DNA of 64,000 nt from a virus (taxonomy: Duplodnaviria; Caudoviricetes), in the IMG/VR virus record IMGVR_UViG_3300035454_000933, positions 154 through 64,153 of that record, one strand, 5' to 3'. Of the stretch, positions 31,378 through 51,262 are shown one piece after another. Position numbers and translations under genes: made by a program. The notes below the pieces were generated by a model. The model was not told the origin of the DNA, ran no database searches, and saw nothing but the letters and a program-made list of their open reading frames with translations. Each line of letters begins with the position of its first letter. The stretch's first letter is position 1.

Positions 31378-34300
31378 TTAGAACAGGCCGGCTTGAGGCG
31401 TTGCCGAGGCTTGACGGCGCGCCTTGATGGCGCCGGCCAGGCCGGTGTCGTCCAGACCGTCCAGAGTTTCCGCCATCATGTCCTTGAGCGCGTACTTCTT
31501 GCGCAGCCTCTCGCGCGATCTCCGCTCTTCTGGGTGGTCGGCCTCCAGGTCGAGCAGCTCGATGGCGGACTTCTGGCCCAGGCGGTCGATGCGCTTGTTC
31601 CGCTGGCTGTGGGTCTTCGCCGTGTCTGGAATGTCGTGCTGGATCAGGTACCGGCCCGACTGCAGGTTCAAACCAACAGCCGCGGCGTCAGAGGCCACCA
31701 GGATATCGGCCTCCGGAGGTCCGCCACCGTCCGGGTTGAACATGCGGCGCTTGCGGTCCTTCTCCTTGGCGCCGTCCGACCCCGTGATCACCACGACACG
31801 CTTGCCGGCGGCCTCCAGCGCCTTGCGGTACTGCTCCACGCTCTCGCGGTTGCGCGCGAACACGATGCCCTGCTTGTCGGGGCGCGCCTGCACCAGCTTG
31901 AGCGCGTGCGCGACCTTGGCGTTGTCCGGGTGGCTGTTGATGATCCGGTTCATGGCCGAGGCGCGCAGAACACCAACGGCCTTCTGCAGCTGGGCGGCCA
32001 CGGCCTCGTGCTCTTCGTCGGGCACGCCAGCAAACGAGTTCGGAGACAAGGCCTTGATGGCCGCCACGTCGACCTTGCCGGCCTTCTGCGCCATCCGGGC
32101 CCGAGCCAGGTGTTTGTCCAGATCCCCTATCGCCTGATGCTGCCCAGCCGACAGCTGCACCAGCTCGCGTTTGCGCTCGCGCTGAATGTCCGGGGTGATA
32201 TCGGTGGGGAAAATGTAGCGCGCCATTTCCCGCTGCAGCGCGTTCTTGCTGGCGATGGTGTCAGCGCCATACCGGCGCATGAAAGCCGACCGATCGGCGT
32301 AGCGAACCGGGTCCATCTTGTGCAGCAGGGAGTGCACCTCGCTGGCATCGTTCTTCACCGGGTCGCCGCTGGCGTAGGTGTGGTACGGCGTGTGGTGCCC
32401 GGCGGCCTCGATCACGTTCGACAGCGAGGAATTCTCCTTGCCGGCGCGGTTCAGCGTGTCGTGCGCCTCGTCGACGAACGAGGCGTCGAAGTTGATGCCC
32501 TCCTTCTCCCAGGTCGAAGCGATCCACTCCTGGCGCTGCGCGGGCGTCATACCCTGCAGCTTGTCGGTCATTTCGTCTTCACTGATGCCCGCGTGCTGGG
32601 CGCCCAGGTGCACCATGTCGTCACGGAAGGACTGGTGCGTCATGACCGCGATATGGGTTCCGGCATCCTTGTAGGCGGCAATCCGATCGTCCCGATTGGC
32701 GCCAGGCTGGATATGGGTCTTGAACTTGCCTGGCTCCAGCAGGCGCAGCGCCTCGCCGTTGAACTGACCCTGCACCACCGACGGCACCAGCATGATGGAG
32801 CGCTTGATCTTGCCCTGGCTGGCCAGGTGCGCGTGCGCGCCCAGCATCATGTTGGTCTTGCCGGATCCAGCCCCAGCGGCCAGGCCCATGCGCTTGTTGG
32901 CGTCCAGGTACTTGATGGCGCGCTGCTGGGCGGCGTACTTGCCGGACATGCTGATGCCCCAGAGCTTCGTGGGCTGCCCGGGTTTGAAGTTGGCTCCGAC
33001 GTGCTCCATCATGCCGGCGATCTGCCGCTCGACCACGTGGCCGACCGTGTGGCGCTCGTCAGCACCCAGTTTGTGTTCAACCGGCGCATCGCTACCGCCG
33101 TTGTTGCTCAAATTCTCGTCTTCTTGAGACGCAAAGAAGCCCATCTGGGCCTGCTCCATGGCAGCCTGCTCCTTCTGGGCCGCCTCGATCTTGTCGGCCA
33201 CCGCGCCGCTGGCGTACTTGCCTCCAACCCGGTTGCGCAACCGATCGATCAGATCCTTGTCCTTGGCCTGGCGCGCTTCGCGAGCAGCAGGATCCACAGC
33301 GTCCAGGTGGTTCAGGTTGTTCCTGATGGTCCTCTTGCCCAGCTTGATCGGATTGGCCGGATTCAGCTTGTTGTGGGTTTCAACGAACGACGACGCCACG
33401 CGCGAGCGGATCACGTCCTGGACGGCCTCGTAGGCGCGCTCGTTGCCGCCCATGGTCTTGAGGTACTTCGACCAGGTCAGCGAGCTGGCGTTCAGCTTGG
33501 CCGACAGGTTGTCGCGGTGGCTGCGCCAGTCCTGCCAGTCGGGGTTCGGCACGGTGTCGCCGAACATATCGGTGGACTCCTTCTCGGGCTCCGATCCGAT
33601 GTGGTCTTCAAGCTCCTTGCGCATGGCGCCGGCCGAAGCGTCCTCCTTCGCGATGTTGCGATAGAAGAACTCACGCAGGGCCGACTGGTCCTTGTGCTCC
33701 AGTTCACCGATCTGCTTGTACGCTGCGGTGGCCTCTGGAGTCTCAGCCAAAGCCCGGTGCAGGGCGTCCACCGAGTGCTGATCCACGGCCACCTTCTGGC
33801 GGTTGAGCGTGGTGCGCTGGCCGCCCAGGCTGGTCACGTGATCATCGGCGTACTTCTCGAAGATCGGGTCCAGGTCCTCGGCGCGCTGCTGCTTGCCGTC
33901 GGCGCCCTTGAGTGGCGCCACCTCGTCGAGCGCCTTCCGATAGTCCTCGGTCCGGTCGAAGCCGACCTTCTGGAAGAAGGCCGCCGACTGCACATCGGCC
34001 AGGATATCCACCGGGCTGTCCCCGTCCGCCGCGCGCGCGCCGATGTAGGTGCGAAGCGAGGCAGACAGATCCGCGCTGGGCTGGAACGGCTGCGCCAGGC
34101 GATCGGCGACACCGGCCTTCACGTCCATGACCAGGTCCGGGCGATTGGCTACGCCCTGCGGCAGCCAGCCGTCCTCGTCCTGCTTGCCGGAAACGATATC
34201 GAGGTTGCGGCGGATTTGCTGCAGGTCCTGGTGTGATGTGGGTCGGGCCAGGCGAAGCATGCCGGCGTGGTTGATGGTGAGGAATGTGTTCGAGCCGTCA

Positions 34301-35931
34301 CGCTCGAGCGAATAGTCGCCCGGCATCAGGCCGATCGCGCGCGCCTGAACCACGGCTGAGTCCAGCGCCATGTTGCCGAGTGAGGTGTGGAAGTCGCCGT
34401 CGCCCGGGCCCTTCATGGCCATGACGAGAGCGGCATTGGCCTCCATTTCACCCAGGGCCTGCCCCAGGATGCGCTGGGCGTCACCGACCGCGGCGCGGCG
34501 GCGCGCGTTCAGCTCCTGCGCCACTGACAGCTCGGCGCCCGTCTGGGCCTCGTCGGAAACCTCGATCGCCTTGGCTGCATCGGTCAGGTCGCGGGCTTTC
34601 TTCAGCGCCTCGGTGCTGGCGACCATGTAGTGGTTCATGTGCCAGTCCTGGACGCCATCGGCCACGCTCTGCACGTCCTCGGCGGGCATGTCCGCGTGGA
34701 TCCGGCGGGCCAGCACCTGGGCGGCGCCGGCCACACCGAGCACGTCGACAACGGATCGGTCGACCAGCGCATCACCGCCGACGGCCAGCGCCAGCGCGTT
34801 GATGCTGTTGTAGGCGCCGACACCGATGTGGCCGCCCAGCGTCTCGCTCGGGTTGGCCCCGGCGATCTTTCCGACCTCGGACAGGAATGCCCGGGTTTGC
34901 ACGGTGCGCAGGTCGGACGCTAGGTCCTCCTTCACGGCGTCATCGACATCGTCGCTGGCCGACAGAACAAACGCCTTCGGCTCAACGGTGGCCGCGGCAT
35001 CAATCTCGGCGTTTGCGTCGCGCGCGGCGCGCTCGATCTGCTGCAGGCGTTTACCCAGCTTGACCAGGTCCAGCGCGTCCTGGGCGGACATGAGGCTCGC
35101 ATCGGCCGTCGGGGCGGCTGGCTCCTTGATGCCCTCCAGCTCGGCCTTGATGGCCGCGGCGGCGCCGCCGTTCTTCTTGAACGCGGCCAGCAGCTGCTCG
35201 GGCGACTTGGCGGCCTGGACCTCCTGCTCCAGAACGGCCGGGGTGAGGCCGGCCGCTTCGGCGCGACCCTTGTAGTCGGCCTGGAAGCCGAGCCCCGAGG
35301 TCAACGGCTTGACCGGGTCAATGTCCTGAACGGACAGCTGGTCCGGGTCGTCGCTGGACAGCGGCAGCTCTCCGATACCGGCGTCAGCGCGCAACGCGGC
35401 ATCGGCCACCAGGCGCTCGCGGCTTTGCTTCACGGCGTCCTTGGCCTTGCCGAGCAGGTCGCGGTGGAACTTATCCTGCACCTTGGCGCGCGCGCCTTCG
35501 GACAGGTGCTCGTAGTCCTCGGCCGGGAATTCCAGCTCAGCGGGATCCCAACCGGCTCGCTTGGCGACCTCCTGGATCAGCCCGAGCTCGGCGGCCTTGC
35601 GTTGCTCGTGCACGGCCTTGCGGGCTTCCTGCTTCGCGCCGTGAACACCGGACGCCTTGTCGGCCGCGATCTGATCCTGGCGCGCGGCCCGCTTCTTGCC
35701 AGCCGACGCCTTGGCCTCTTCTTTGTAGGTGGAATGGGACTTGACGCCGCGCAGTTTGAGGTAGTTCAAGCTGCCGCCGGCACCACCCACCACGCGAGCG
35801 GTACCGTCCGGCTGCGGCTCGATGAGCAGCGGCTGCCCCTTGGACCCCGGCCCGTTCGGGCGGACTGTGATCCAGTGGGCCCCTTCAGGGATGGAGTCGG
35901 CCTTGATGAACAGGCGTGGGATTTGCGGCAT
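31378..35931 (-). CDS. Large head-associated protein with C-terminal SNF2/SF2 helicase-like domain (1517 aa)
   Basis: Walker A AAGAGSGKT, FVDEAH, SGDPVKND, ASDAAAVGLNLQ, SQRNKRIDRLGQ. Confidence 0.85.
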   Translation of the reverse strand: MPQIPRLFIKADSIPEGAHWITVRPNGPGSKGQPLLIEPQPDGTARVVGGAGGSLNYLKLRGVKSHSTYKEEAKASAGKKRAARQDQIAADKASGVHGAKQEARKAVHEQRKAAELGLIQEVAKRAGWDPAELEFPAEDYEHLSEGARAKVQDKFHRDLLGKAKDAVKQSRERLVADAALRADAGIGELPLSSDDPDQLSVQDIDPVKPLTSGLGFQADYKGRAEAAGLTPAVLEQEVQAAKSPEQLLAAFKKNGGAAAAIKAELEGIKEPAAPTADASLMSAQDALDLVKLGKRLQQIERAARDANAEIDAAATVEPKAFVLSASDDVDDAVKEDLASDLRTVQTRAFLSEVGKIAGANPSETLGGHIGVGAYNSINALALAVGGDALVDRSVVDVLGVAGAAQVLARRIHADMPAEDVQSVADGVQDWHMNHYMVASTEALKKARDLTDAAKAIEVSDEAQTGAELSVAQELNARRRAAVGDAQRILGQALGEMEANAALVMAMKGPGDGDFHTSLGNMALDSAVVQARAIGLMPGDYSLERDGSNTFLTINHAGMLRLARPTSHQDLQQIRRNLDIVSGKQDEDGWLPQGVANRPDLVMDVKAGVADRLAQPFQPSADLSASLRTYIGARAADGDSPVDILADVQSAAFFQKVGFDRTEDYRKALDEVAPLKGADGKQQRAEDLDPIFEKYADDHVTSLGGQRTTLNRQKVAVDQHSVDALHRALAETPEATAAYKQIGELEHKDQSALREFFYRNIAKEDASAGAMRKELEDHIGSEPEKESTDMFGDTVPNPDWQDWRSHRDNLSAKLNASSLTWSKYLKTMGGNERAYEAVQDVIRSRVASSFVETHNKLNPANPIKLGKRTIRNNLNHLDAVDPAAREARQAKDKDLIDRLRNRVGGKYASGAVADKIEAAQKEQAAMEQAQMGFFASQEDENLSNNGGSDAPVEHKLGADERHTVGHVVERQIAGMMEHVGANFKPGQPTKLWGISMSGKYAAQQRAIKYLDANKRMGLAAGAGSGKTNMMLGAHAHLASQGKIKRSIMLVPSVVQGQFNGEALRLLEPGKFKTHIQPGANRDDRIAAYKDAGTHIAVMTHQSFRDDMVHLGAQHAGISEDEMTDKLQGMTPAQRQEWIASTWEKEGINFDASFVDEAHDTLNRAGKENSSLSNVIEAAGHHTPYHTYASGDPVKNDASEVHSLLHKMDPVRYADRSAFMRRYGADTIASKNALQREMARYIFPTDITPDIQRERKRELVQLSAGQHQAIGDLDKHLARARMAQKAGKVDVAAIKALSPNSFAGVPDEEHEAVAAQLQKAVGVLRASAMNRIINSHPDNAKVAHALKLVQARPDKQGIVFARNRESVEQYRKALEAAGKRVVVITGSDGAKEKDRKRRMFNPDGGGPPEADILVASDAAAVGLNLQSGRYLIQHDIPDTAKTHSQRNKRIDRLGQKSAIELLDLEADHPEERRSRERLRKKYALKDMMAETLDGLDDTGLAGAIKARRQASATPQAGLF

Positions 35932-35953
35932 CCCAGCAGGATAAGGTCACGAC
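35932..35953 (-). promoter_or_regulatory. Late promoter GTCGTGA-CCT-TATCCT-N6-ATG
   Basis: Exact spacing; motif overlaps the MuF stop. Confidence 0.75.
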
Positions 35954-37101
35954 GCGCCCAGGATGGCCGCCAGCTCGGCCGCAAACTCAGGGTCATCACC
36001 AGGGTCAACGTCGCCACCAGCCAGCACCCAGCGGCCGCGGCAATGCGGGTGCACCAGGCCCGCGGGGATCCACCACATCTCGGCCGGGTCGCGCTCCACC
36101 AGCACATCCCCGACGCGCTTACGCGGGGACGCTGCGCGCCCGATGTTGTTCTTTCCGGGCCAGACCATGCGGTCCGGATCCTTCTTGGGGTGATCCGGCG
36201 AGACGACCTCGACCACCGCGCCGTCGATGCGCCGGCAGAACGCGCAGGCGCCGTCGTAGCGCTCCACGCGCTTGATCCGGGTCCCGGGCTTCAAGCTGGC
36301 GATGTAGCCCTGCAGCTGGGCTTCTCCGGCCTCCGTGACCGCGATCCGGCGCCAGTCCCGGTTCATGGCGCCGAACTCGTCGAGCAGCTTTGTCTCCAGG
36401 CTGTGGGACCCGGCGAGCGCCGAACCGAACGCCTGCTCTTCCAGGTGGGCGGCCACCACCACGCGCATGCGGTGGCGCGCGCTTTCGCTCAGCGCCCGAA
36501 CATTCTCGGCCACCCGCTGGCGCGCGAACGTGAGCACGTTGCCGGCAAGCGCGGACAGCGGGACGCCCATGGCCGACGACGACGGCAGAGAGGCCAGGAT
36601 GGCGTCGGCCTGCTTCAGCGTGGGCGGCTTTTCGAGGTTGGCCTGAACCTTGCCTAGCATGCTCGCCTTGGTGGCCAGCCAGTCGGCCTCGGCCAGCATG
36701 GCGTCGGCCGGAAGGTAGCTCTGCACCACGTACTCGATCGCGAGCATGTGGTCGTTCAGCGTCCACTGGGCCGGCGGCAGACTTTCGAGGTACAGGCGCG
36801 CCAGGGCGAGCTCCCCCTGCGACCAGTGCGACATGATCCCCGGTGGTGGCGCGGGCGCTGCAGCGGCGGTGTGATTGGCTCCCGACTTCCAGGCCAGGAA
36901 CTGCGTGCGGACGGCATCCAGGCGCATCAGGCCGCGCTCTGTGAATAGCTCGATCAGGCGGTGCACCAGGGGCGAGTCGTGCGGCTTCCAGATACCGTCC
37001 TTGCCGTGGTCGTGGCCATCCGAGAGGGCCTTGTACAAGCCCTCAAGGGTGTCGTTGGTGACGGACTCGGGAACGTTGATCAGGTCGAGGAATAAGCCCA
37101 T
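35947..37101 (-). CDS. MuF/SPP1 gp7-like head morphogenesis protein (384 aa)
   Basis: RDWRRIAVTEAGEA, DGACAFC, LVHPHCRGRW. Confidence 0.85.
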   Translation of the reverse strand: MGLFLDLINVPESVTNDTLEGLYKALSDGHDHGKDGIWKPHDSPLVHRLIELFTERGLMRLDAVRTQFLAWKSGANHTAAAAPAPPPGIMSHWSQGELALARLYLESLPPAQWTLNDHMLAIEYVVQSYLPADAMLAEADWLATKASMLGKVQANLEKPPTLKQADAILASLPSSSAMGVPLSALAGNVLTFARQRVAENVRALSESARHRMRVVVAAHLEEQAFGSALAGSHSLETKLLDEFGAMNRDWRRIAVTEAGEAQLQGYIASLKPGTRIKRVERYDGACAFCRRIDGAVVEVVSPDHPKKDPDRMVWPGKNNIGRAASPRKRVGDVLVERDPAEMWWIPAGLVHPHCRGRWVLAGGDVDPGDDPEFAAELAAILGAS

Positions 37102-37123
37102 GGCGGAAGTATGGGGTCACGAC
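37102..37123 (-). promoter_or_regulatory. Late promoter GTCGTGA-CCC-CATACT-N6-ATG
   Basis: Exact spacing. Confidence 0.75.
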
Positions 37124-37126
37124 AGC

Positions 37127-37201
37127 TGGAGCGGGCCGCGGGAATCGAACCCGCCTGGTCAGCTTGGAAGGCTGATGCCTGAACCGATCGGCCAGGCCCG
37201 C
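37127..37201 (-). tRNA. tRNA-Gly (anticodon TCC)
   Basis: Acceptor GCGGGCC/GGCCCGC, anticodon arm TCAGC-CTTCCAA-GCTGA, T arm GCGGG-TTCGATT-CCCGC, encoded CCA; 75 nt. Confidence 0.9.
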
Positions 37202-37912
37202 ATACAACGAAGCCCACCGAAGTGGGCCTCGCGGCTGGTTGCTGCCCAGCGCATCAGCTGCAGGACGACATTTCTGGGCCTGCGCACTTTTGCAGCTACC
37301 CCTTGCGGGGCGCATCACTCTACAGAGGTGAGTTGATGGTGCTGAGGACGATTCAGCGGCATCCAGCGCGCCCGGCGGTACTTTACATGCCACAAGGACG
37401 CCAGCTCGCGCGGCGCGCTGGTTCGGATAGCCTCGCGCCACCTACTGAGCGCACCCGAAGCAGGCCGATCCGGCAGCCCGCAACATCCTCGCTTCTCGGT
37501 TCGCGACCATCGTGGCGGCGCCCTATTGCGGATCCAGGATAGACAAGTCCCTTCTCGCTACTGCAGCAGGAGCGCCATCACGATGGCCCTACGCCCGTTT
37601 TGGTGGGCGGACGCAGGTCACCGTGTCGGGGTACGTCTCCCGCCCGGGCTTTCACCGTTCGTGTAGCTGCTCGTCCGTTGATGGACCACACACCCCAGAA
37701 GCTTGGGCCTTACCGCCGTGCTCGCCGCCCTACCAGCTCCGGCCCTTTCGGGTATCGCGGCTTGAGGACTGGGTCCGCACTCCTGCCCCACAAGGGGAGA
37801 CGTCACGCATGCCACAGCACACAGCAGTCTCGCGCTTCGGTGAGCCAACGGGCGAGGCCCCGAAAGGCCTCGCCGAATTGACACACAACCCGCGCTTCTC
37901 GGGGGGTTGTAT
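37202..37912 (-). ncRNA. Candidate large structured RNA between two tRNAs (GOLLD/ROOL-like context)
   Basis: About 710 nt with no credible CDS; cUUCGg, GCAA and GAAA tetraloop hairpins on the minus strand; nested long-range helices 37272-78/37694-700 and 37292-99/37663-70; 10-bp stem 37363-72/37412-21. Confidence 0.55.
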
Positions 37913-37989
37913 TGGTTGCGAGGGCCCGATTTGAACGGGCGACATTCTGGGTATGAACCAGACGCTCTACCAGGCTGAGCTACCACGCG
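37913..37989 (-). tRNA. tRNA-Met (CAT), initiator-like
   Basis: 77 nt, C1:A72 mismatch, anticodon arm TCTGG-TTCATAC-CCAGA, T arm, encoded CCA. Confidence 0.85.
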
Positions 37990-38245
37990 CCAATGGGAAC
38001 AGCCGGAAGCTGCTCTCATTGGCGGCCTGCAAGCAGGACCAATGCCCGGGTACGCTATCCGGGTCCGACGCATGGGCATGAAGCCCGATGGTGGACGGCA
38101 CACCACACCACATGGAGTGGATGCGATGTTAGCACCATCCCGACAATGGCCGCCTGGTGTTGCCACCATCCAACGGGCACTGGTGCCTGCGGTAGCGACG
38201 GCACCCATCGGGATGCATTGCTGCAAACCGACCCCGGGTCGCGCC
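37990..38245 (-). ncRNA. Second hairpin-rich block with no credible CDS, upstream of tRNA-Met
   Basis: Stems GCCAATG/CATTGGC (37989-38023), CCTG-CTTG-CAGG, CCCGATGG/CCATCGGG (38084-91/38205-12), GGTGCC/GGCACC. Confidence 0.45.
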
Positions 38246-38250
38246 GGAGG

Positions 38251-38272
38251 AAAAAATCCCGGCTTGCGCCGG
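38251..38272 (-). terminator. Possible terminator after the portal operon
   Basis: CCGGC-GCAA-GCCGG then GATTTTTT. Confidence 0.5.
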
Positions 38273-38284
38273 CCCTGCTGGGCT

Positions 38285-38629
38285 TCAGGGTGTTTTTTTG
38301 AGTCTAAGCTGTTCCTGCCGTGCTTCCGGCGGAATCCCAACAAAACGACGCCGGCCGGACGCATCCTGAACAATCAGACCGTCCTCGCCTTCCTCAATCA
38401 CGTGGTAGCGCTGCTCGGCGCGCTTCTTGTGCCCAGACAGGTGCTCCCAGCGGATCCGGTGCTGGGCGCCTTCGTGCTCCACCGTGCAGCCATGCTTGCC
38501 GGTGCAGACGACCTTGCCGGACACAGGCTGGCCCGATCGGTGGAAGAACACCTCATCACCCGCACTGGCGCGGTAGGCCCCAGCGGCGGCCTGCTGGCGC
38601 GCGTTCTTGGGAGCGTTGAAGTCGGCCAT
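38285..38629 (-). CDS. Hypothetical small beta-barrel-like protein coupled to portal (114 aa)
   Basis: Start overlaps the portal stop; AGDEVFF...GKVVCTGKHGCTV. Confidence 0.7.
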   Translation of the reverse strand: MADFNAPKNARQQAAAGAYRASAGDEVFFHRSGQPVSGKVVCTGKHGCTVEHEGAQHRIRWEHLSGHKKRAEQRYHVIEEGEDGLIVQDASGRRRFVGIPPEARQEQLRLKKTP

Positions 38630-40335
38630 TACGGCTCCACCGTGAACACCGGCAGGCCGAAGGACTTCTTCAGGCTGCCATCGTCGAACATCCCTTGTTC
38701 CTCTTGCCCAGCGTCGCCGCCAGGCGGGGCGCCAGTGGCGTCCTCGTCGTCGCCACCCACGCCAGGCGGAGGCTGTCCGCCGCCGGCCGTCGGGTCGCCG
38801 TAGTCCTCCTGCGAGGCCTGCTTGGACGCCTGGTACGCGCCAGAGAGCACAGGGTTCAGCGGCGCATCGCCGATATCGCCCTCAACCGCATCCAGGTTCA
38901 GGTGGGTCTTGCGGGCCTCGTTCCAGGTCATCAGGGTCTTGGCCTTGTCCCAGGTCGTCTCCGGCGATTCCTCGTCGAGCCCGGTCCAGCGGAAGCAGTA
39001 CTTGTCGCCGAACTCCGACACCACGTAATCCGAGAACACGTCCTCGAAGTGGGTCAGCAGCGGGCGCAGGCCTTTGTCCTTCGAGTTGACCAGCTTCTCT
39101 TCGGTGTCCGAGCCAGACAGAGACGACGTGCCCGCGGTGAAGGACTCGAAGTTGATCTCGTCCGGCGCGATGCCGTAGATCGCGCAGATGATCGACGTCA
39201 GGAACGTCATCCATTTGGCGAACATGATCTCGTTCACCTCGACGCCGAAGTTCTCGAAGGCGGCCTTGGACTCCTGATTTTTCGACACGAGCACCGGCAA
39301 CGTCCACGCGTTGTTGATGCCCTTGACCATGGCATTCCAATAGCGCTTGAAGGCGGCCATGTCCTGCTCGGCGTAGTCGCCGGTCAGGTGCAGCAAGCCC
39401 TTGGGGATGCTGTTCGAGTCGAAATAGCGCGTGTTGTAGGTGAAGGCGTTCAGGAAGCCGGTGACGACGCGCACCAGCAGCTCGACCTCGGACAGGCCGT
39501 AGCCGCCCACCATCACGTCGGTGCGCGGATTGCGCGGCACGTAGATCAGGTCGTCGAAGGTGTAGGCGGCCCGGATGTTCCCGTCGACCACCTGCAGGGC
39601 GAATATCTCGTCGTCGCCCTGGTAGCCGATCTCGTTGGCCAGCCGGATGGTCGCACCGTCCACGGCGTACATGCCGTCGATGCCCATCGCCTTGTTGCGC
39701 TTGTACTCCGTCTCGATCGGCGCGCTGTCCATGGTGAGGCTGTCGCGCACCAGCTTCGCCATGAGGCCGGAGAAGTTGTCGCGCTTGAGGCGCGCGCGCT
39801 GCCGCGGGTTCTTTTCCCAGCCGCAGTGCGTGAAGAAGTCCTGCAGGAGCGCCACCGACTGGTGCTCATCTGTCCCCAATTTTTCGTTCGGGTCCTTCAG
39901 GGCGATCTTGAAGCCCGGGCCCTTGCCGCCGTCGGCCACGCGACAAAAGCGCTTGACCTGGCGGATCCGCGTGAAGACCACCGCAGACAGGATGGGGGTC
40001 TGATCGACCATGCCGCGCAGCATGTCGAAGGACATGGAGCTCCAGCGGTCGCGCCACTCCCCCATGGCGTTGCCATACGTGTCGTTGATGTGGACCGACT
40101 GCATGCCGGCCTTGCCGCGCTCGACCGCCCGGGACGGGAACGGGATCACGTTCGCGCGCGACAACGACTTCGCAAAATCCTGCTCAGCGTAGCTCTCGCG
40201 CATGTACTCGATGATGGGCGCCATGTCCTGCACCGAGGACGGCATGGCGTCCTGCTGCGCCTCTCGGAGCGCATCGACGCGCTCGTCTTGGGGGGCGCCA
40301 TCAGCGTGGGCAACAGAAAGTGCAGTTTCAGCCAT
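38629..40335 (-). CDS. Portal protein (568 aa)
   Basis: YIPRNPR-like YVPRNPRTDV, GYGLSEVE, IPKGLLHL, FGVxP-like YGIAPDEINF, KDKGLRPLL. Confidence 0.9.
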   Translation of the reverse strand: MAETALSVAHADGAPQDERVDALREAQQDAMPSSVQDMAPIIEYMRESYAEQDFAKSLSRANVIPFPSRAVERGKAGMQSVHINDTYGNAMGEWRDRWSSMSFDMLRGMVDQTPILSAVVFTRIRQVKRFCRVADGGKGPGFKIALKDPNEKLGTDEHQSVALLQDFFTHCGWEKNPRQRARLKRDNFSGLMAKLVRDSLTMDSAPIETEYKRNKAMGIDGMYAVDGATIRLANEIGYQGDDEIFALQVVDGNIRAAYTFDDLIYVPRNPRTDVMVGGYGLSEVELLVRVVTGFLNAFTYNTRYFDSNSIPKGLLHLTGDYAEQDMAAFKRYWNAMVKGINNAWTLPVLVSKNQESKAAFENFGVEVNEIMFAKWMTFLTSIICAIYGIAPDEINFESFTAGTSSLSGSDTEEKLVNSKDKGLRPLLTHFEDVFSDYVVSEFGDKYCFRWTGLDEESPETTWDKAKTLMTWNEARKTHLNLDAVEGDIGDAPLNPVLSGAYQASKQASQEDYGDPTAGGGQPPPGVGGDDEDATGAPPGGDAGQEEQGMFDDGSLKKSFGLPVFTVEP

Positions 40336-43203: not shown

Positions 43204-43221
43204 CTTGGAATTGGGGACAGA

Positions 43222-44133
43222 TTACTTGAGCAGGTCAGCGTCGATCACGAGCATGGACTTCTGCATCGGGGCCGGCTTCTTGGCGCCGCTCACAAAATCC
43301 AGCTTGGTGGGGTGGAAGTTGCCGCCCGACGCGGTTCGGACCTGCGGGCCATGGTGGTCCACGACCTCGTGGGTCTTGCCGGAGCCGTCCTTCACCGTGT
43401 CGCCCTTGCGGAAGTACTTCCCATAGGCCTTGTGCTCTTCGTGCCCGACGTCGCCTTCGGCTGGTGGGATGTAGTCGCCTGCGCCCGCTGGCTTTTTTGC
43501 GGCCGGCTTCTTGGCGCCACCATGAGCGCCAGACGCATACGCATGCTTCAGGGCGTGCTTGAGCAAACCCTTGCTCACCTCTTTGAAGTCCTCTCGATCA
43601 CTACCGACCGTGTCCAGTGAATCGAACTGGCCGAAGTGTTTCCCCGCCTCAGCGACGACACCGTCGCGGTGCGTGCCGCCATTCGAGTGACCAGCGCCAG
43701 CGTCGTAGGCGTGATGCAGTGCGGCCTTCAGGCCGGATTTTCCAGTGTCCACGAAGTCCTCGCGATCGCTTCCAACCTCATCGAACGAGTCGAGCCCGAG
43801 GTGCTTCTTGGCTGCGGCGCTGATTGACTCGTCCATGTGCGCGCCCTTGCCAGTCTGGGAGACGTGGTTCAGCGCGGCGGAGTGGCGATCGGCGACGCCC
43901 TTGTCCTGCAGGATCACGTGGTTCTTGCCGTCCGGCTCCTTGATCTGGTGGCCGCCGTGCTTGAACGGGGCGACGCTGTAGCCGCCGGCCGGCTTCTTTT
44001 CAGAGCCTCCATGCATGCCCCAGGCAGGCTTCGGCTTCGCGGCCTGGCGCTTGTCGTCGTGGGCAGCGACAAAGGCTCCGTCCTTGCGCGTGAAGCCCTG
44101 AATGTGGGCCTTGAGTACCAGCTTCTTGTCCAT
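43222..44133 (-). CDS. Putative head cargo protein with tandem DUF6900-like repeat (303 aa)
   Basis: N-terminal LVLK|AHIQGFTRKDG; two copies of KH(L/F)G.(F)DS.D.VGSDREDF......LK.AL.HAY..GA. Confidence 0.7.
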   Translation of the reverse strand: MDKKLVLKAHIQGFTRKDGAFVAAHDDKRQAAKPKPAWGMHGGSEKKPAGGYSVAPFKHGGHQIKEPDGKNHVILQDKGVADRHSAALNHVSQTGKGAHMDESISAAAKKHLGLDSFDEVGSDREDFVDTGKSGLKAALHHAYDAGAGHSNGGTHRDGVVAEAGKHFGQFDSLDTVGSDREDFKEVSKGLLKHALKHAYASGAHGGAKKPAAKKPAGAGDYIPPAEGDVGHEEHKAYGKYFRKGDTVKDGSGKTHEVVDHHGPQVRTASGGNFHPTKLDFVSGAKKPAPMQKSMLVIDADLLK

Positions 44134-44151
44134 GACGACTCCAGAGGAAAT

Positions 44152-44173
44152 GACGGCAGTGTAGGGTCACGAC
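44152..44173 (-). promoter_or_regulatory. Late promoter GTCGTGA-CCC-TACACT (leadered, SD GGAG)
   Basis: Intergenic, before the 303-aa gene. Confidence 0.7.
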
Positions 44174-44174
44174 G

Positions 44175-44516
44175 TCAGATCAGGCTGCCATTGTGCCGCG
44201 AGTACGGCGGCGACGGCTGCAGGCGGGCGTGCTGGTGCCAGAAGCTGGCGTAGGCGTCATGCAGCTTGCGATCGCGCACCGAGTTCTTGAAGTTGTCGTA
44301 GTCCACGGTCATGACCGCCACCATCATGGCCTCGCCGACTTCGGTGCGCGGCACCACGGCGCGGAACTGGTAGTCGGTGCCGATCCGGCTGATCACCTTT
44401 GCGCGAGGAAACACGCGCTCGATATCGCCGGGGCGACGGGCGCGCACCAGCAGCTCATCGGGGCCGCACTCCTTGTCGACGATCGACAGGAACGCATCAT
44501 TCATACAGATCCACAT
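44175..44516 (-). CDS. Conserved hypothetical protein (113 aa)
   Basis: LLVRARR...TDYQFRA...DYDNFKNSV...AYASFW; SD GGAG. Confidence 0.75.
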   Translation of the reverse strand: MWICMNDAFLSIVDKECGPDELLVRARRPGDIERVFPRAKVISRIGTDYQFRAVVPRTEVGEAMMVAVMTVDYDNFKNSVRDRKLHDAYASFWHQHARLQPSPPYSRHNGSLI

Positions 44517-44550
44517 AACATCACTCCAGCAGGTTTAAGGTGGGGTGATG

Positions 44551-44573
44551 TTACATCAACAATTTTGTTGATG
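44551..44573. promoter_or_regulatory. Palindromic operator-like site CATCAACAA-TT-TTGTTGATG
   Basis: Perfect 9-bp inverted repeat (44554-44573) in the AT-rich gap upstream of the 113-aa gene. Confidence 0.5.
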
Positions 44574-44586
44574 GTGTTTTTTCGTT

Positions 44587-45375
44587 CTAGAACAATGACT
44601 TACCAGCCGACCACTTGCCGGGCGGTGGCTCCGGCTTCTTGGGTGCTGGCCCAGCGCCGATAGCCTCCGCAACGGGATGGTCGGCCCATCCGTTGAGTAG
44701 GTCGTACAGGTGCGACTTGGGCGCCAGGTGCACCGCCTGAGACTCCCAACCCATGGTTGTCGGGTCCCCGCCGACGCGGCGCGCGCGGTACATGCGGGCC
44801 ACCGAGGTGGTGCGATCGAAGTCCCCGACAAAGCCGGTGATCTCGATCTTCAGGCCGGTCTCTTCAAAGGCCTCCTTGATGGCGTTGGCCTGCAGGGACA
44901 GGCCCGCCTCAGCCGTGCCTTTGGGGAATGTGGCGTGGTAGCCGCCGAACTGGTTCGTGGGCGCCGTGAGCCACACGCGGCCGTCCGGCTCTTCGATGAT
45001 GACGCCAGCGCCGATCGACTTTCCGGGCTTGGTCACCAGGGGCGGCTCGGCCAGGTCGTCCATGACGCCATCGACGTAGTCCCAGCCTTCGGCCGTGGTC
45101 GGGTGGTCGCGCCAGGCGGTGAAGCTGACGCCGTTCAGGCGCGCGGGCACATCACCACCGGGCACGAAGGTGGCCACGGCTTCGGGGTTGTCCCAGGTGC
45201 TGTGTGCCGACGGGTGGCTGGGCTTCTTGATCAGCACCGGCTTGCCGTTGTCCCCGAGTGCCGGGTGGTCGTGTGATTCAGGCGCGGGCTCCCCGCCGAC
45301 CCGTTCATACGGCCGCACGTAGTGCTCGCCCCGCATGTGGCCTTTGACGTGGGCCTTGGCCAGGTCTTCAATCAT
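44587..45375 (-). CDS. NUDIX hydrolase with N-terminal cargo-like extension (262 aa)
   Basis: Nudix box GTAEAGLSLQANAIKEAFEETGL (E7 to L and R15 to K variant); N-terminus LAK|AHVKGHMRGEHYVRPY. Confidence 0.85.
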   Translation of the reverse strand: MIEDLAKAHVKGHMRGEHYVRPYERVGGEPAPESHDHPALGDNGKPVLIKKPSHPSAHSTWDNPEAVATFVPGGDVPARLNGVSFTAWRDHPTTAEGWDYVDGVMDDLAEPPLVTKPGKSIGAGVIIEEPDGRVWLTAPTNQFGGYHATFPKGTAEAGLSLQANAIKEAFEETGLKIEITGFVGDFDRTTSVARMYRARRVGGDPTTMGWESQAVHLAPKSHLYDLLNGWADHPVAEAIGAGPAPKKPEPPPGKWSAGKSLF

Positions 45376-45866
45376 CGCACCCCCAGGATCAGGTTCGCTG
45401 TGTCTTGCAGCATGGCCTCCAGCGCGGCCTTGACGTCGTCATCACCCATCTGGCCGTCCTCGTGCTGCACCGCCAGATCCACGATCGACGAAGCAACCGT
45501 GGTGAACAGGAGTAGGCCCGGGTCATCGACGCCAGGCGTTTCTGGCACGACGAGCTTGATGCGGCGGCCCAGCCGGTCCGGGCTGTTCCAGGGAAGCGGC
45601 GAGTACCGCGGATCCGCGCCCATGACCACATGACCGTACTCGGCAGCGAGGTCCCGGATCTGCTCGATCGCTTTCTCGTTGGACAGTGTGTCAGCGTTGT
45701 AGGCGCGGCGCACACCGACGACCTGCTGCGCGAACTCGGACACCAGCGCGCTGACAACGTCCGGGTCGCCGAGCGACGGGCGCTGGCCCGGCGGCTTGAA
45801 GCCCAGGTCTTCCTCGCGGCCGCGCTCGGCGGCGCGGGAAGCTTCATCGTTGTTCGGTTCCATCAT
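45372..45866 (-). CDS. Hypothetical acidic protein coupled to the ART gene, candidate inhibitor (164 aa)
   Basis: TGATG overlap with the 1798-aa gene stop and ATGA overlap with the NUDIX gene. Confidence 0.7.
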   Translation of the reverse strand: MMEPNNDEASRAAERGREEDLGFKPPGQRPSLGDPDVVSALVSEFAQQVVGVRRAYNADTLSNEKAIEQIRDLAAEYGHVVMGADPRYSPLPWNSPDRLGRRIKLVVPETPGVDDPGLLLFTTVASSIVDLAVQHEDGQMGDDDVKAALEAMLQDTANLILGVR

Positions 45867-48800
45867 CAAATCCCCAGGTCAGGCGGCAACATCAGGATCT
45901 CCAGCTCCAGGCGCTGGGCCCCTGGGTTCCCGTGCTCTTCATCCGGAACCATTTTTTTGGACAGTATAACGAAGCGGGCATTTGGTAAAGTCGTTACCTC
46001 CTTCTCGCCAGCGAAGCCTCCAGACCCGAAGGACTCGACCGCCTTTGCCCCCTTGGCATAGACGACCTTCACCCGGTGGGTGCCGAAGCCCTTCGTGGCC
46101 GTCGGGCTGTAGCTTGTGCACATCGGGCCCGTGGCCTGGAACACCGTGCCGTCCTTGGCGGACATGATGTGCTCCAGCATCTGGGGCGACATTTTCTGCC
46201 AGCGGTACAGGCAGGTGCCCTCCGGCATCGCCGTGGCGTGCGCCAGCGCGGCCTGGGCCACGTCCTTGAGCAAGTTCCCCTGGTGGTCCTGGCTCTTGCC
46301 GTCTCGGAACAGGTCGTTGTAGGAGCCCGACGACTGGACCGAGGAAATGAAGTGCTTCGCCAGCTTCGAAGCCGACTTGTACTTGGCCTTGGCTGCTTCG
46401 ACCGCCGTGGTGGTGTAGTTGCTCAGCACCTTGGGCTTGAAATTCCCCGGCGCGCCGATCGCCCCAAGCGCCACCCAGAAGCCGAGCTTCTCGTTGCTTT
46501 GGACCTTGGCGACCGTGGTGCCGAACGGCTTCGGGGGGAACGCGGCGTTCAGGGCGGCCAGGGAGCCGACGTCGGTCGATCGGAAGACCTTCAGCGGCTG
46601 CGGCGGGTTCGCCACCTCGTCGAGCACCTGCAGCAAGTCCTGCTGGTACTGCAGCACGTGCTTGGACGGGTGCTTCGACACCGGTAGCATTTTCCCGGTC
46701 GGCTCGCCGGTGTCCTTGTTGACCTCCTGGAATTTGAAGTCGGCCAGCGCAACCATGTTGCCGGTGGCCGCAAGGCTGCGCATCGCCTGCTCGACGGCCT
46801 CGTTGCTCTTGTTGACGTGAGGCTTGGAGCTCAACCCGACGCCCGCCCCGTTCCAATTCGAGAAGTCGTGCACCTTGGGCAGCGACGCCGGGTTGATCGG
46901 CAGGGCCGTCGGGTCGAGCGCCTTCTTCGGCGGCTTGGCGGCCTTCGGGAAGCGTGCGATCAGGTCGTTCTTGCGCGCGATCAGCGTGTCGGCCATGGCC
47001 TTCTTCTGCGCCTCGGTACCGGGACCGTGGTCGAAAACCAGGGCGCGAATGGCCGAGTCGTCGATGGCCGCCACCTTCGCCACGCTGGCGGTCAGGTCGG
47101 CCACGGTCATCTTGCCGAACACGGCCGCCGACTTCGGGTTCAGCTTGGCGTCGCGCAGGGTGTCGATCTCGTCGACCTTGGGGCCGAATGGCTTCTTTGC
47201 GCCCTGGGCGCGGTACTCCAGCGAGCCACCCGCATCGACGCGGTGGGCCTTGCCGTCGGGCCCGATCTGGCAGTTGTCGAGCGCCAGGCCGATCACGTCC
47301 CAGTTTCCGAGCCAGGCGTCCACCGCGAAGCCGGCGTGCACACCTTCGACCTTTGCGAGCGCAGTGGCGCTGCTCGCCGGCTTAATGTTGACCCACTTCG
47401 ACGCGATGCCGACCTTGCCCGCCTTCGTGACCAGCTGCGCATCCTGGCTGGACAGTCCGGCCAGAGCGTAGAGCTTGGCGGCCAGCACCTCGCTCTTGGC
47501 GGTGTCGGCGTCGTTGGGGAATTTGCAGTACCACTCCTGGCCGGTCGGGTCCTTGAATTTGCCGCCCGGGTTCGAGCCGCCCTGCTTGCCGGTCTGCGCC
47601 CAGGCGTCCATGGCGGGCGCCGCGGCCGTCGTGCTCGAAGCGGAAGACCCGGCGCCAGGCATGTCCGAGGCGCTGAACGAAGGGTCGAGCTTTTGCAGCA
47701 TGTGCAGCGGCGGCACGGTGTGGCCCGCGGCCGACATCTTCTGCACCAGCTCCTGCAGGGTGGTCGCTTGAGCTGCCGGATCCCCGGTGTTGGCCTGCAT
47801 GCTGGCCTCGTCGTGGTACTCGGCGCCCATGCTGGGCTCGAAGGCCACCAGGCCCTCGTGGTTGCCGATGGTCCCAGCGCCACTGAAACCCGGGTCGTTC
47901 GGGCTGTGGACCCAATCGCCAGCGCCGTCGTCGCCGGTCTGCATCTTCACCCAGTGGCCGTCCTTGAGGATGAGCATGCCGTCGGCGCCCATCTTCGTGT
48001 CGCCTTCTTTCGGTCCCTGCTGCGCATCGGCGTCGTGCTCGTGCGTGCCGTATCCCTGGTACGTGTAGCCGTTGGCCGACTTCTGCTTGATCAGCGTCGT
48101 CTTCATGGCGGCCGCGGCCTGCGGGGAAGCCAGGTGCTTGACCGTCGTCTGCTGGGTCCCGCCGATCTTCCCGTACTCGGTCTTCAGCGTGGACCCATGC
48201 ACCGACACCGACCACGACTTGCTGTGCGTGCCGGTGGTGTTGTGGAAGACCTGCGAGGCCACGCTGATCTTGGCCGGCTCGACCGGCTCCGACATTTTGT
48301 GCCGGACGATCAGCTTCTTGATGTGCGCGAGCATCGGCTTGGAGAGCTGCAGCTTCGACATGCTCTCCAGGTTTTCGAGCGTCAGGTTGTTGAGCGCCGC
48401 CTTCTCGTCTTCAGAGAGAGGCTTGATCATCTTCTCGATGTGCGCCTTGACCTCTGGCTTCAGGCTGCCGACCTCCAGCATCTCCTGCAGGTCGGATATA
48501 TCCAGGCTCTCCAGCGACTCCAGCACAGACGGGTGCACGCCTACCGGCTTCCCGGACAGCGCCCAACCGTGAAGGTTGTGCACCTTCTCTGTGGCCAGCT
48601 GCAGGGACGCATCGAACTCGTCGTCGGCCATCGACGAAACGTCTCCGGCGATGTTGCTCTGAATGGCGTCGTTGAACGCCTCCATGGCGGTGTCTGGATC
48701 CGAGTCCTCCAGGGCCGCGTAGGCTTCGGCCTGCTCCTTGGTGGGTTGCTTGCCGGCGGCCATGGCGGCCTTCCAGCCGTTGAACGCTTCGTTTGCCGCG

Positions 48801-51262
48801 GGCTCCGGAGAAGCGGCGTCGGCAGCCGTCGGCACGTGCGCCACGCCCAGGGCGGCCAGCGCGTCGGCGCCGTATTTGTGCCAGGCCTGGGCGTCCTTGT
48901 TGTCTGACCCAGCCAGATGCTGGGTGTTTTCCTGCAGGGTGGCGATGTCCTTGTTTTTGAAGGCGTCCACCATGACGGAGCCCGTCAGATTGAAATGCGA
49001 CGTCACCGGCGGTACCGGTGGGGTTTTGCTCAAGTACGCCAGCGCCGCGGCGGCGTAGGCATGAGCCGCCTTGGCGCCAGCGGACTCCAGGCCATCGGCC
49101 AGCGTCTGGTGGTCATCAATTTTTGCGACGTTGCCACTGTTCAGAGCCTGCTCGATATCGTCGATCACCTCAGACCAGTGAACCGAGACGAGGCCGGTCG
49201 GCTTCGCTGGCTTCGAGCTGGTGGGCTCCGTGGCCACGGCCGCGGTAGCGCCAGGCTCGCCCAGGCCGGCGAGCGCGGTCTGCGCGAGAAGAACCTGCTT
49301 CTTGGCGTAGGTCTGCTTGGCTGCACCCTTGGCGTCGATGAACGCCTGCAGGCCGGCCGTGTCGCCAGCGAAGGCCATGGCCTCGATCTTGGCGACCGCG
49401 GCGTTGTGGCTCTTGGCGTTGGTGTTCGCGTCCGGCAGCTTCTGCTTGTACCAGGGGATCGACTGCAGGTTCTGCAGCTGCTGGGACGAGAGGGTGCTGG
49501 TGGACGGCGCCGCAGGCGACATGGTCACGTTGCCCGGTACCGGAGCCACATCGGCCAGGACCTTGGCCACATTGGCCTGCACGCCAGGCTTCAGGCTGGA
49601 CCACGGAACCTTTGCAACGGCATGCGCGGTGGTGTTCGGGATGCCGGTGGCCGTGGCGTAGACCGACGGGTCGCTGGCGGCCAGGTACTGCGCCTTTTTT
49701 CCCCAGGACAGGCCGTCCCACTGGTACCCGACCGAACCGGCGGCTGGCGGGGCCTCGCCGCCCTGCTTCACCCAGTGCCCGTCCTTCAACACCAGGGTGC
49801 CGCCGTCGGCGCCGGGTTTTGTGTCGCCCTCCTTGGGGCCGCTTGCCGACCACTGCATCAGGCTCCCGCCGTCGCTCGTGGCGGGCGCGCCGGAGTGCAC
49901 GAAGCCCTGCTTCTCGTAGAAGCCGACAGCGTCCTTGGTGGCGTAGAGCTTGATCGGCAGGTCGCCATAGCTGGCGAATTTCTTGGCCTCGGCCAGAAGC
50001 TGGGTGCCAGCACCCTTGTCCACGGAACCGATGTGGTGCACCTCGACGCTGTCGCCGGTCTTGCCGAACGCGATCGCCGCGGTCACCTTGCCGCCGGAAT
50101 CCTTGATGACGAACTTGTTCTCGTAGTTAGAGAACAGCGCGTTGTTGATCTCTTCAACAGCGGCGGCCGGGCCAGGCTTGATCAGCTTTTGGAGCTCGAC
50201 GGCTTCCGTGATGCCGTCCCCGACGAACTGCGGGCCGGTTGCAGGGGCAGCGGCAGGAGCCGGTGCCGGCTTCGCCCCACCCTTGGCGTGCTCCAGCGCC
50301 GCGGCGTGCAGGGCCACGAGCTTCTTGCTGTTGGGCGTCTTGCCATGCCACATCTTCTTGTGCGGCTCGGCGGCGTCCTGCACCACCTGGACGTTACCGG
50401 CGTTGGCGTGGTCGATGATCTTCTGGGCCGTCTTCTCGTAGAGGGCCTTCACGCCGGTGACGGTCTTGCCCTCCTGGAAGGTGGGCATCTGCAGCGGGGC
50501 TGCGGTGGGCGCCGTGACCGGCTCCGGTGCCGGCGCCTCCGGCTTGAACTGCTCGGGCGCCTTCGCCACCAGGTGCATGCCGAACTTCTCAGCCAGCACC
50601 TTCTGCGCAGCGATCGCCTTCTCGCCAAAGTCCGCAGCGTCGAAGGCCTCCTGCTCGTCGTCGCCGTTGTTCAGCGCCAGCACGAAGCCGTCGACCTTGT
50701 CGTCCAAGCTGGCGGGCAGCGCGCCCTTGAGCGCGAGAGCGAGGCCGGCGTAGCCGCCCAACCCCTGCACCTCGGTTGGCTCGGCAGCGGTCGCAGCCGG
50801 CGCCGTGTTGGCCTCTCCGGACACTGCGCCATGGGTACCAGCCTTCTGGCCTGGTTTGACCATGTGTGGGCTGCCGTACAGACCGAGGATGTGGTTTGCG
50901 ATCTTGGCCAGCTTCTGGGAATAAGAATTCGTGCCGTAGCCCGCGCCCAGAATGGCGGCCACGTTACCTGTGTCAGACCACTCCTTCAGTTTTGCCAGCG
51001 CGCCGTTGAAGGTCTTGGCGTTGACGTTCGAGTCCGGGATCTTGAGGGCATCCAGCATCTCCGGCGTGAAGTGCGGAGACGGCACCACTGCGTGCGATTG
51101 GGGTGCGTGAGCGACTGGTGCTCCTTTGGGGGCGGGCTTGTCGTCGTGAAGTTTGTGCCAGCGGCCGTTGTAGAGGTAATGCTTCCCCGAGTGCTTGAAC
51201 TTGCCCTCGTGAACGATGGACTTCAGCAATAGGACGAGGCGTGGGGATTGATTGGCGGCCAT
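45866..51262 (-). CDS. Polyvalent protein: GNAT + WGR + HipA/PI3-4-kinase-like + R-S-E ADP-ribosyltransferase (1798 aa)
   Basis: GNAT DKGAGTQLL and AVGFYEKQGF; WGR KSWSVSVHGSTLKTEYGKIGG; kinase GGSNPGG, WYCK, KSEVLA, DAWLGNWD, DN, RVDAG; ART LYR, CTS, EKE. Confidence 0.85.
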   Translation of the reverse strand: MAANQSPRLVLLLKSIVHEGKFKHSGKHYLYNGRWHKLHDDKPAPKGAPVAHAPQSHAVVPSPHFTPEMLDALKIPDSNVNAKTFNGALAKLKEWSDTGNVAAILGAGYGTNSYSQKLAKIANHILGLYGSPHMVKPGQKAGTHGAVSGEANTAPAATAAEPTEVQGLGGYAGLALALKGALPASLDDKVDGFVLALNNGDDEQEAFDAADFGEKAIAAQKVLAEKFGMHLVAKAPEQFKPEAPAPEPVTAPTAAPLQMPTFQEGKTVTGVKALYEKTAQKIIDHANAGNVQVVQDAAEPHKKMWHGKTPNSKKLVALHAAALEHAKGGAKPAPAPAAAPATGPQFVGDGITEAVELQKLIKPGPAAAVEEINNALFSNYENKFVIKDSGGKVTAAIAFGKTGDSVEVHHIGSVDKGAGTQLLAEAKKFASYGDLPIKLYATKDAVGFYEKQGFVHSGAPATSDGGSLMQWSASGPKEGDTKPGADGGTLVLKDGHWVKQGGEAPPAAGSVGYQWDGLSWGKKAQYLAASDPSVYATATGIPNTTAHAVAKVPWSSLKPGVQANVAKVLADVAPVPGNVTMSPAAPSTSTLSSQQLQNLQSIPWYKQKLPDANTNAKSHNAAVAKIEAMAFAGDTAGLQAFIDAKGAAKQTYAKKQVLLAQTALAGLGEPGATAAVATEPTSSKPAKPTGLVSVHWSEVIDDIEQALNSGNVAKIDDHQTLADGLESAGAKAAHAYAAAALAYLSKTPPVPPVTSHFNLTGSVMVDAFKNKDIATLQENTQHLAGSDNKDAQAWHKYGADALAALGVAHVPTAADAASPEPAANEAFNGWKAAMAAGKQPTKEQAEAYAALEDSDPDTAMEAFNDAIQSNIAGDVSSMADDEFDASLQLATEKVHNLHGWALSGKPVGVHPSVLESLESLDISDLQEMLEVGSLKPEVKAHIEKMIKPLSEDEKAALNNLTLENLESMSKLQLSKPMLAHIKKLIVRHKMSEPVEPAKISVASQVFHNTTGTHSKSWSVSVHGSTLKTEYGKIGGTQQTTVKHLASPQAAAAMKTTLIKQKSANGYTYQGYGTHEHDADAQQGPKEGDTKMGADGMLILKDGHWVKMQTGDDGAGDWVHSPNDPGFSGAGTIGNHEGLVAFEPSMGAEYHDEASMQANTGDPAAQATTLQELVQKMSAAGHTVPPLHMLQKLDPSFSASDMPGAGSSASSTTAAAPAMDAWAQTGKQGGSNPGGKFKDPTGQEWYCKFPNDADTAKSEVLAAKLYALAGLSSQDAQLVTKAGKVGIASKWVNIKPASSATALAKVEGVHAGFAVDAWLGNWDVIGLALDNCQIGPDGKAHRVDAGGSLEYRAQGAKKPFGPKVDEIDTLRDAKLNPKSAAVFGKMTVADLTASVAKVAAIDDSAIRALVFDHGPGTEAQKKAMADTLIARKNDLIARFPKAAKPPKKALDPTALPINPASLPKVHDFSNWNGAGVGLSSKPHVNKSNEAVEQAMRSLAATGNMVALADFKFQEVNKDTGEPTGKMLPVSKHPSKHVLQYQQDLLQVLDEVANPPQPLKVFRSTDVGSLAALNAAFPPKPFGTTVAKVQSNEKLGFWVALGAIGAPGNFKPKVLSNYTTTAVEAAKAKYKSASKLAKHFISSVQSSGSYNDLFRDGKSQDHQGNLLKDVAQAALAHATAMPEGTCLYRWQKMSPQMLEHIMSAKDGTVFQATGPMCTSYSPTATKGFGTHRVKVVYAKGAKAVESFGSGGFAGEKEVTTLPNARFVILSKKMVPDEEHGNPGAQRLELEILMLPPDLGI

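Follow-up and report, generated by a model that had tools for sequence, protein, structure and literature searches.

A lysine-based label shared by enzymes of a phage head module is probably a cut site of the head maturation protease

Results

The virus contig IMGVR_UViG_3300035454_000933 (Duplodnaviria; Caudoviricetes) comprises 64,153 bases at 64% G+C, and the stretch analysed here, a window of 64,000 nucleotides (positions 154 to 64,153), spans nearly all of it. Non-structural proteins are encoded together with the head genes of this virus, and four of them begin with a leader of 7-14 residues that ends in one shared element, two hydrophobic residues and a lysine followed by alanine or serine (hhK↓[AS], where the arrow marks the proposed cut; hereafter, the label). 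All four minus-strand open reading frames (ORFs) read as an original prediction, made from this sequence alone, had given them: the 1517-amino-acid (aa) helicase protein starts MPQIPRLFIK↓A, the 1798-aa multi-enzyme protein has ...PRLVLLLK↓S, the 303-aa protein starts MDKKLVLK↓AHIQGFTRKDG and the 262-aa NUDIX protein starts MIEDLAK↓AHVKGH. The Pfam domains of these proteins are SNF2/helicase (1517-aa), GNAT plus WGR (1798-aa), DUF6900 twice (303-aa) and NUDIX (262-aa). A signal peptide or lipoprotein reading of the four starts is ruled out by a hydrophobic run of only 3-5 residues and the lack of a cysteine.

The labelled genes lie in a head module whose order on the minus strand is: 1798-aa protein (GNAT, WGR and an end resembling an ADP-ribosyltransferase, ART), 164-aa protein, 262-aa NUDIX protein, 113-aa protein, 303-aa protein (DUF6900 twice), large terminase, portal, 114-aa protein, two tRNAs, 384-aa MuF-like protein, 1517-aa SNF2-type helicase, 85-aa protein, head maturation protease, scaffold and major capsid protein (Table 1). 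By portal, capsid protein, protease and terminase, the nearest relatives are myophages of 86-95 kb, namely Bordetella PHB04, Aeromonas ST4, Pseudomonas Dolphis, Jeremy and Touem01, Yersinia fHe-Yen8-01 and Morganella Mecenats66; Thermus phages and Herelleviridae, such as Listeria A511, are more remote. The helicase gene is missing in Dolphis and PHB04 has a bigger enzyme island at the same place, indicating that the enzymes are accessory inserts in a conserved head module. In the 1517-aa protein, Pfam finds helicase domains only, in the C-terminal third, and no methylase domain. The ART-like end of the 1798-aa protein shows weak Vip2 similarity only (E about 0.05), and its homologues in ST4 and Dolphis are annotated as ADP-ribosyltransferase. 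A Pfam scan found no peptidase domain in the four cargo proteins, and Pfam at E<=10 gave no family for the label-plus-hairpin pieces described below, nor for residues 1-60 of the ART and helicase proteins.

Cargo genes and head genes also have a late-promoter-like motif in common. GTCGTGA-N3-xAxxxT is present in 14 copies in the window, every one on the minus strand, against 0.41 expected, and a copy stands 6-24 nucleotides upstream of the 1798-, 303- and 1517-aa gene starts, in agreement with the prediction that these three genes have late promoters of their own; the portal, terminase, MuF-like and protease genes are likewise preceded by the motif. The predicted coupling of the NUDIX gene was borne out by overlapping codons: its start overlaps the stop of the 164-aa gene, the start of which overlaps the stop of the ART gene.

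Table 1. Features of the head module and its labelled genes (window coordinates; arrows mark proposed cuts)
Feature	Position	Strand	Basis or remark
Major capsid protein	27949..29451	-	predicted maturation cut K38↓A39 (around base 29338)
Scaffold-like acidic protein, 222 aa	29506..30174	-	five label-type sites, one conserved near residue 24
Head maturation protease	30175..31056	-	PHROG 1028 at 3.5e-38; label-type sites
SNF2-type helicase protein, 1517 aa	31378..35931	-	leader ends K10↓A11 (35902-35931), then IPxGAHWITV
Late-promoter-like motif, 6 nucleotides upstream of helicase gene, within end of preceding gene	35938..35953	-	motif scan
Conserved head-module protein, 384 aa, HPHCRGRW end	35947..37101	-	conserved LYK24↓A25 site
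Portal protein	38629..40335	-	conserved C-end K↓SFGLPVFTVEP (38632-38664)
303-aa protein, DUF6900 twice and SH3-like domain	43222..44133	-	leader ends K8↓A9, then hairpin (44047-44133)
Late-promoter-like motif, upstream of 303-aa gene	44158..44173	-	motif scan
NUDIX protein, 262 aa	44587..45375	-	leader ends K7↓A8, then hairpin motif (about 45295-45375)
Acidic protein, 164 aa, unlabelled, translationally coupled between ART and NUDIX genes	45372..45866	-	ORF overlaps
Multi-enzyme protein, 1798 aa (GNAT, WGR, conserved middle region, ART-like end)	45866..51262	-	Pfam and orthologues; leader ends K14↓S15 (51221-51262)
Late-promoter-like motif, 6 nucleotides upstream of 1798-aa gene	51269..51284	-	motif scan

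Within the window alone the enrichment of the label is modest: 4-5 of the 56 called proteins have it in their first 15 residues, against 0.8-1.6 expected (binomial p 0.007-0.02), and one additional match, at 24771-25415, is unrelated and is not kept in relatives. Such numbers could reflect a chance likeness among short hydrophobic N-termini in a GC-rich genome. The comparative data, however, make chance untenable. Among helicase orthologues, lysine followed by alanine or serine stands behind two or three hydrophobic residues in 17 of 17 distinct sequences, and the remainder of the leader differs in both length and sequence; the Thermus phage Cumys, for instance, has LVLAK↓A ahead of a conserved RWITLHP. 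The ART orthologues have hhK↓[AS] followed by (I/F)AHQAGYxLxGGRWH, behind leaders that read MRLLLLK↓S, MLVLAK↓A, VVLLAK↓S, RYFLK↓A, LYLIK↓A and LVLFLK↓A. With the exception of the Touem01 NUDIX protein, to which we return in the Discussion, K-[AS] is kept in the ART and NUDIX orthologues of ST4, fHe-Yen8-01, Touem01, Mecenats66 and four IMG/VR genomes. PHB04 carries the label on four of the 12 accessory genes between portal and protease (p = 2.5e-4), and its labelled cargo includes three unrelated proteins, a ppGpp synthetase, an InPase-like 169-aa protein and a 2097-aa methylase; in one IMG/VR genome the label is found on a 1660-aa and a 121-aa protein. Given this conservation across orthologues and unrelated families, and the number of profile matches reported below, we regard chance as already refuted, with next to no probability left to it. 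In fHe-Yen8-01, the annotated start of gene 131 (NUDIX) gives a leader of three residues, and upstream in-frame GTG/TTG codons, which overlap the end of the previous gene, would make it 7-10 residues.

In the NUDIX and 303-aa proteins, and in the PHB04 ppGpp synthetase and methylase, the label passes into a basic hairpin of approximate sequence HVxGYTRKDGTxVxxHxDKR; the hairpin is divergent in the ART protein, and the helicase and InPase-like proteins have the label without it. The original prediction, of which the hairpin formed no part, had suggested a profile search with the label. A 45-position profile of label plus hairpin, run against 1.84 billion representative proteins, matched 1062 protein clusters at E<=0.001 and 70 at E<=1e-10. 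Among the best 150 of the 1062, there are 133 copies with the lysine in place, and in more than 95% of copies the third position before the cut is hydrophobic. The carriers' domains include InPase, ART-PolyVal, PBECR3, NUDIX, DUF6900, Acb1, the PolyA_pol head domain, RadC and RING/U-box, with Acb1, an anti-CBASS domain, on a single carrier and RING/U-box on another; ready-made counter-defence enzymes may be delivered in this manner.

Contrary to the original prediction, these matches also show that the label is not specifically N-terminal: of the 133 copies, 81 are internal and 52 N-terminal, the latter with leaders of 4-25 residues (median 8). Moreover, the NUDIX frame of two sister IMG/VR genomes has about 70 extra conserved residues, a small domain, before the label, which is therefore internal there. 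The 303-aa protein is the most instructive case. It aligns end to end with unit 1 of a two-unit, 476-aa metagenomic protein and stops at ...DLLK, exactly where its relative goes on with AHVKGYTRKDG. The C-terminal lysine-serine plus hydrophobic strand noted earlier in the 303-aa protein (MQK↓SMLVIDADLLK, with SMLVIDADLLK at 43225-43257) and in the portal (LKK↓SFGLPVFTVEP) reads as quoted in both, but the alignment to the 476-aa protein shows that in the 303-aa protein this end represents the leader half of a following junction and is no separate signal. The gene border thus falls at the proposed cut, as predicted for a processing site. In the AlphaFold model of the 303-aa protein, leader residues 1-12 have confidence below 50, most of the C tail lacks regular structure (confidence in the 60s) and residues 240-280 form a confident small beta domain; the modelled leader and C tail fit, weakly, with exposed sites. 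A word-index search with residues 1-40 returned only the protein itself, and tblastn of the whole protein against cultured phages gave no match. A structure search offered the PBCV basic adaptor domain as a look-alike of label plus hairpin, and we rejected it for want of sequence support.

The module is confined to a lineage. A pattern scan of IMG/VR with the label alignment found 9 loci only, all in contigs of 77-98 kb. The InPase/ART-PolyVal phage loci that we fetched with two carrier proteins are discussed below; the single positive locus among these 160 also has the portal and MuF lineage of the window. An IMG/VR contig of 46 kb with an integrase-like gene has the same portal/MuF lineage, is otherwise different and bears three labelled genes; in two of these, another K↓A site precedes the first by about 20 residues.

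The same site recurs in proteins that build the head, an aspect that, the portal apart, was likewise outside the original prediction. The capsid protein matches PHROG 752 at 9e-88 and the A511 capsid protein by tblastn at E = 1e-7. In the A511 record (GenBank DQ003638.2) the mature-peptide feature begins after ...EDALK (K23↓S24), and a multiple alignment places this cut in the same column as K38↓A39 of the window protein. In the protease, H68, S137, K18↓A19, K192 and K203↓A204 are invariant in 16 sequences, and H68 and S137 are the presumed catalytic residues. Scaffold and protease have five label-type sites each, about 0.02 per residue versus 0.0024 in the window proteome, or about ten times the density. 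The 384-aa protein, which has no match in Pfam, PHROG or NCBIfam, is annotated in Mecenats66 as 'putative minor head protein', and we take it to be MuF-like. In the portal, a conserved K↓[AS] lies eleven residues from the end. K↓[AS] is therefore conserved in the capsid protein, scaffold, protease, MuF-like protein and portal end, from phages of Proteobacteria to the Thermus phage Cumys. The protease (residues 1-200, from a 16-row alignment) was also modelled in complex with residues 1-40 of the 303-aa protein; the score was 0.00, which weighs neither for nor against a contact.

Two further resemblances involve the protease. Its residues about 198-232, after the invariant K203, are a near copy of the capsid N-arm (residues about 33-66; K↓ALEASY..TD....GGAA.G.QSLD), a feature kept in 16 orthologues, and such mimicry of the capsid arm may place the protease in the shell. 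The portal C-end, K↓SFGLPVF, resembles K↓SFGLSPDEAAEW in the protease (residues about 263-270), and the two may represent a common docking or cut element.

The distribution of the site among head proteins bears on which enzyme would cut it. The label could be cut before packaging or after injection by a protease of the host or by a peptidase domain within polyvalent proteins, and embedded metallopeptidase domains have been proposed to process polyvalent proteins (Iyer et al. 2017, PMC5512222). The Pfam scan of the four window proteins, however, found no peptidase domain, and a pattern in which capsid protein, scaffold and protease all keep the site is characteristic of a head maturation protease; we therefore consider cutting by another protease highly improbable.

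Discussion

Our data suggest that the element shared by these enzymes is a recognition and cut site of the head maturation protease, and we think it fairly probable that the late-made enzymes enter the procapsid, lose their leaders and are delivered with the DNA. The site would consist of two hydrophobic residues and a lysine, with the cut falling before an alanine or serine. It would serve in proteins that make up the procapsid or its contents (capsid protein, scaffold, MuF-like protein, portal tail and the protease itself) and, 5-18 residues from the start, in accessory enzymes (SNF2 helicase, GNAT/WGR/ART protein, NUDIX hydrolase and DUF6900 protein). In many related proteins the site and its basic hairpin lie between enzyme units of polyvalent proteins and would mark unit borders, such that a unit could be encoded alone behind a leader or strung together with others and cut apart. 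The label on the enzymes is probably the protease-cut boundary of head cargo, which makes it probable that the labelled enzymes enter the capsid, undergo trimming and are injected. The data establish the motif, how it is conserved and distributed, and its agreement with the mapped cut of a homologous capsid protein. Cutting, packaging and injection of the cargo, like any addressing by its leader, are what we infer from the comparisons above. Of the proposal that a capsid-addressing tag marks unrelated enzymes, the conserved label, the unrelated enzymes, the late-promoter-like motif and, through the A511 alignment, the form of a cut site all stood; the specifically N-terminal position did not.

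A wider reading, which we put forward tentatively and think has the smaller part of the odds in its favour, is that the label is a portable 'load and cut' address used by a large phage lineage with A511-type head proteases. An inactive protease or the scaffold core would hold the uncut site and so recruit the enzyme into the procapsid; cutting would then free the enzyme and separate strung units, the basic hairpin at the new N-terminus would help a unit to leave with the DNA, and any enzyme placed behind the label would become injected cargo. Because stand-alone genes retain the leader, the uncut site presumably does something. Internal copies exist, so an N-terminal position is not required, and these copies together with the very short leaders make it doubtful that the leader is sufficient for capsid loading. 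That the leader itself addresses cargo to the capsid is, in our estimate, a substantial minority possibility.

Several observations weigh against the label being a cut site of head cargo. The sole mapped cut in this lineage is that of a distant protein, the A511 capsid protein, at 22% identity. In the Touem01 NUDIX orthologue, glycine follows the lysine. No convincing or conserved internal label was found at the variable borders of the 1798-aa protein. The one experimental hint in favour of packaging, a 'particle associated' note on the ART, 164-aa and NUDIX homologues in the fHe-Yen8-01 record, is a broad one: the record marks 52 of its 136 genes in this way, replication proteins among them, and three of three would arise by chance with p about 0.06. 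Of the 160 InPase/ART-PolyVal phage loci, 159 lack the module, which is therefore lineage-specific and not general to polyvalent proteins. Finally, the hairpin is strongly conserved after the lysine, suggesting a role beyond that of a cut site, and its core is also present in the tandem repeats of proteins with signal peptides, where the lysine is missing.

These two features of the hairpin would suit an uncut binding module, in which a strand and a basic beta-hairpin dock the cargo (to portal, MuF-like protein, scaffold or DNA) or join units and the lysine is part of the fold: roughly 25 residues after the lysine are conserved more than a protease would need, and a protein-atlas structure search matches residues 1-35 to the beginning of a viral NUDIX cluster. 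Against such a module, the helicase and the InPase-like cargo have hhK↓[AS] and no hairpin, K↓A also marks the capsid protein position that corresponds to the annotated A511 cut, the 303-aa gene ends between 'strand' and 'hairpin', which would split a folded module, and AlphaFold models the leader with low confidence. We consider such a module unlikely. The label could also have its role in the host cell, once the protein has been delivered or expressed, as a localisation, stability or nucleic-acid-binding tag, and none in head assembly. The hairpin is basic, and alanine or serine as a new first residue would be stabilising by the N-end rule. The genes, however, lie within the head module with the late-promoter-like motif, and the otherwise different 46-kb contig combines the label module with this portal and MuF lineage, making a host-cell tag very unlikely.

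Cutting of the label by the head protease would bear mechanistic similarity to processing in T4, where the capsid-targeting sequences of IPI-III and Alt are removed by the prohead protease gp21 and the cargo is packed into the head and injected. Both systems have short N-terminal leaders on non-structural proteins, an ADP-ribosyltransferase among them, and in both the leader ends in the cut motif of the capsid protein's own maturation site, as far as sequence can tell for the phage studied here. The proposed cut, however, follows lysine and precedes alanine or serine, whereas T4 uses the glutamate of L/I-x-E; the leaders are unrelated in sequence, the protease and capsid protein belong to an A511/SPO1-like lineage, and the label also occurs between domains and with a basic hairpin. 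Since its site is lysine-based, the label would be an analogue of the T4 leader system and not a member of it. P1 carries large helicase/methylase proteins in its head for injection, the antirestriction proteins DarB and DarA, and their packaging relies on other Dar proteins and not on a leader. In PHB04, the 2097-aa methylase, a separate gene, adjoins the helicase orthologue, an arrangement reminiscent of P1; the window helicase, unlike DarB, lacks a methylase domain, and the two are likened by description and not by homology. A511 shares a homologous capsid protein, a related portal and a cut after ALK and before serine; its annotated cut is in the capsid protein only, and we know of no tagged cargo in A511.

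The proposed cargo also overlaps with polyvalent proteins, for which packaging and processing into units have been predicted (Iyer, Burroughs, Anand, de Souza, Aravind 2017, PMC5512222). The effector repertoire described there (ART, NUDIX, InPase, PBECR, SNF2 helicase, RelA/SpoT) and its location beside portal and MuF genes are shared with the labelled proteins. Like them, the 1798-aa protein is a single chain with several effector domains of unrelated kinds; the NUDIX protein and the 303-aa protein have one domain type each. That paper assigns processing to embedded metallopeptidases, in contrast to the present genomes, in which most units are separate genes with their own leaders, and searches of its text by term found no mention of the label. 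The propeptides of ejection proteins in SPN3US and phiKZ-type phages offer another parallel, as the prohead protease there uses a single motif to trim many proteins inside the head (PMC5694885, PMC10052503); motif and phage lineage differ from those considered here, and cutting in those phages was shown by mass spectrometry. Full-text literature searches on fHe-Yen8-01, on PHB04 proteomics and on the motif string brought up no paper that deals with the label. The principle is thus not new, with T4, phiKZ-like phages and P1 each doing likewise in their own way; the novelty lies in the motif and its lineage, in its placement both at N-termini and at junctions, and in a spread over about a thousand clusters.

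If the head protease does cut at the label, a sequence rule would become available for phage proteins that are delivered ready-made with the DNA, a group that is hard to spot from sequence. The carriers belong to enzyme types of host take-over and counter-defence (ADP-ribosyltransferases, NUDIX, InPase, PBECR nucleases and the Acb1 anti-CBASS protein). Such cutting would also explain how polyvalent proteins in this lineage come apart into working units with no built-in peptidase, and laboratory strains would gain a second means, independent of T4, of loading proteins of choice into phage heads.

Two features of the module lie outside these arguments. Between tRNA-Gly and tRNA-Met, a gap of ~710 bases (37202-37912) holds no credible gene and has no Rfam match at the gathering score. 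Residues about 1218-1535 of the 1798-aa protein, which have no Pfam match, are conserved as far as Gordonia/Actinomycetia phages, at 33-41% identity.

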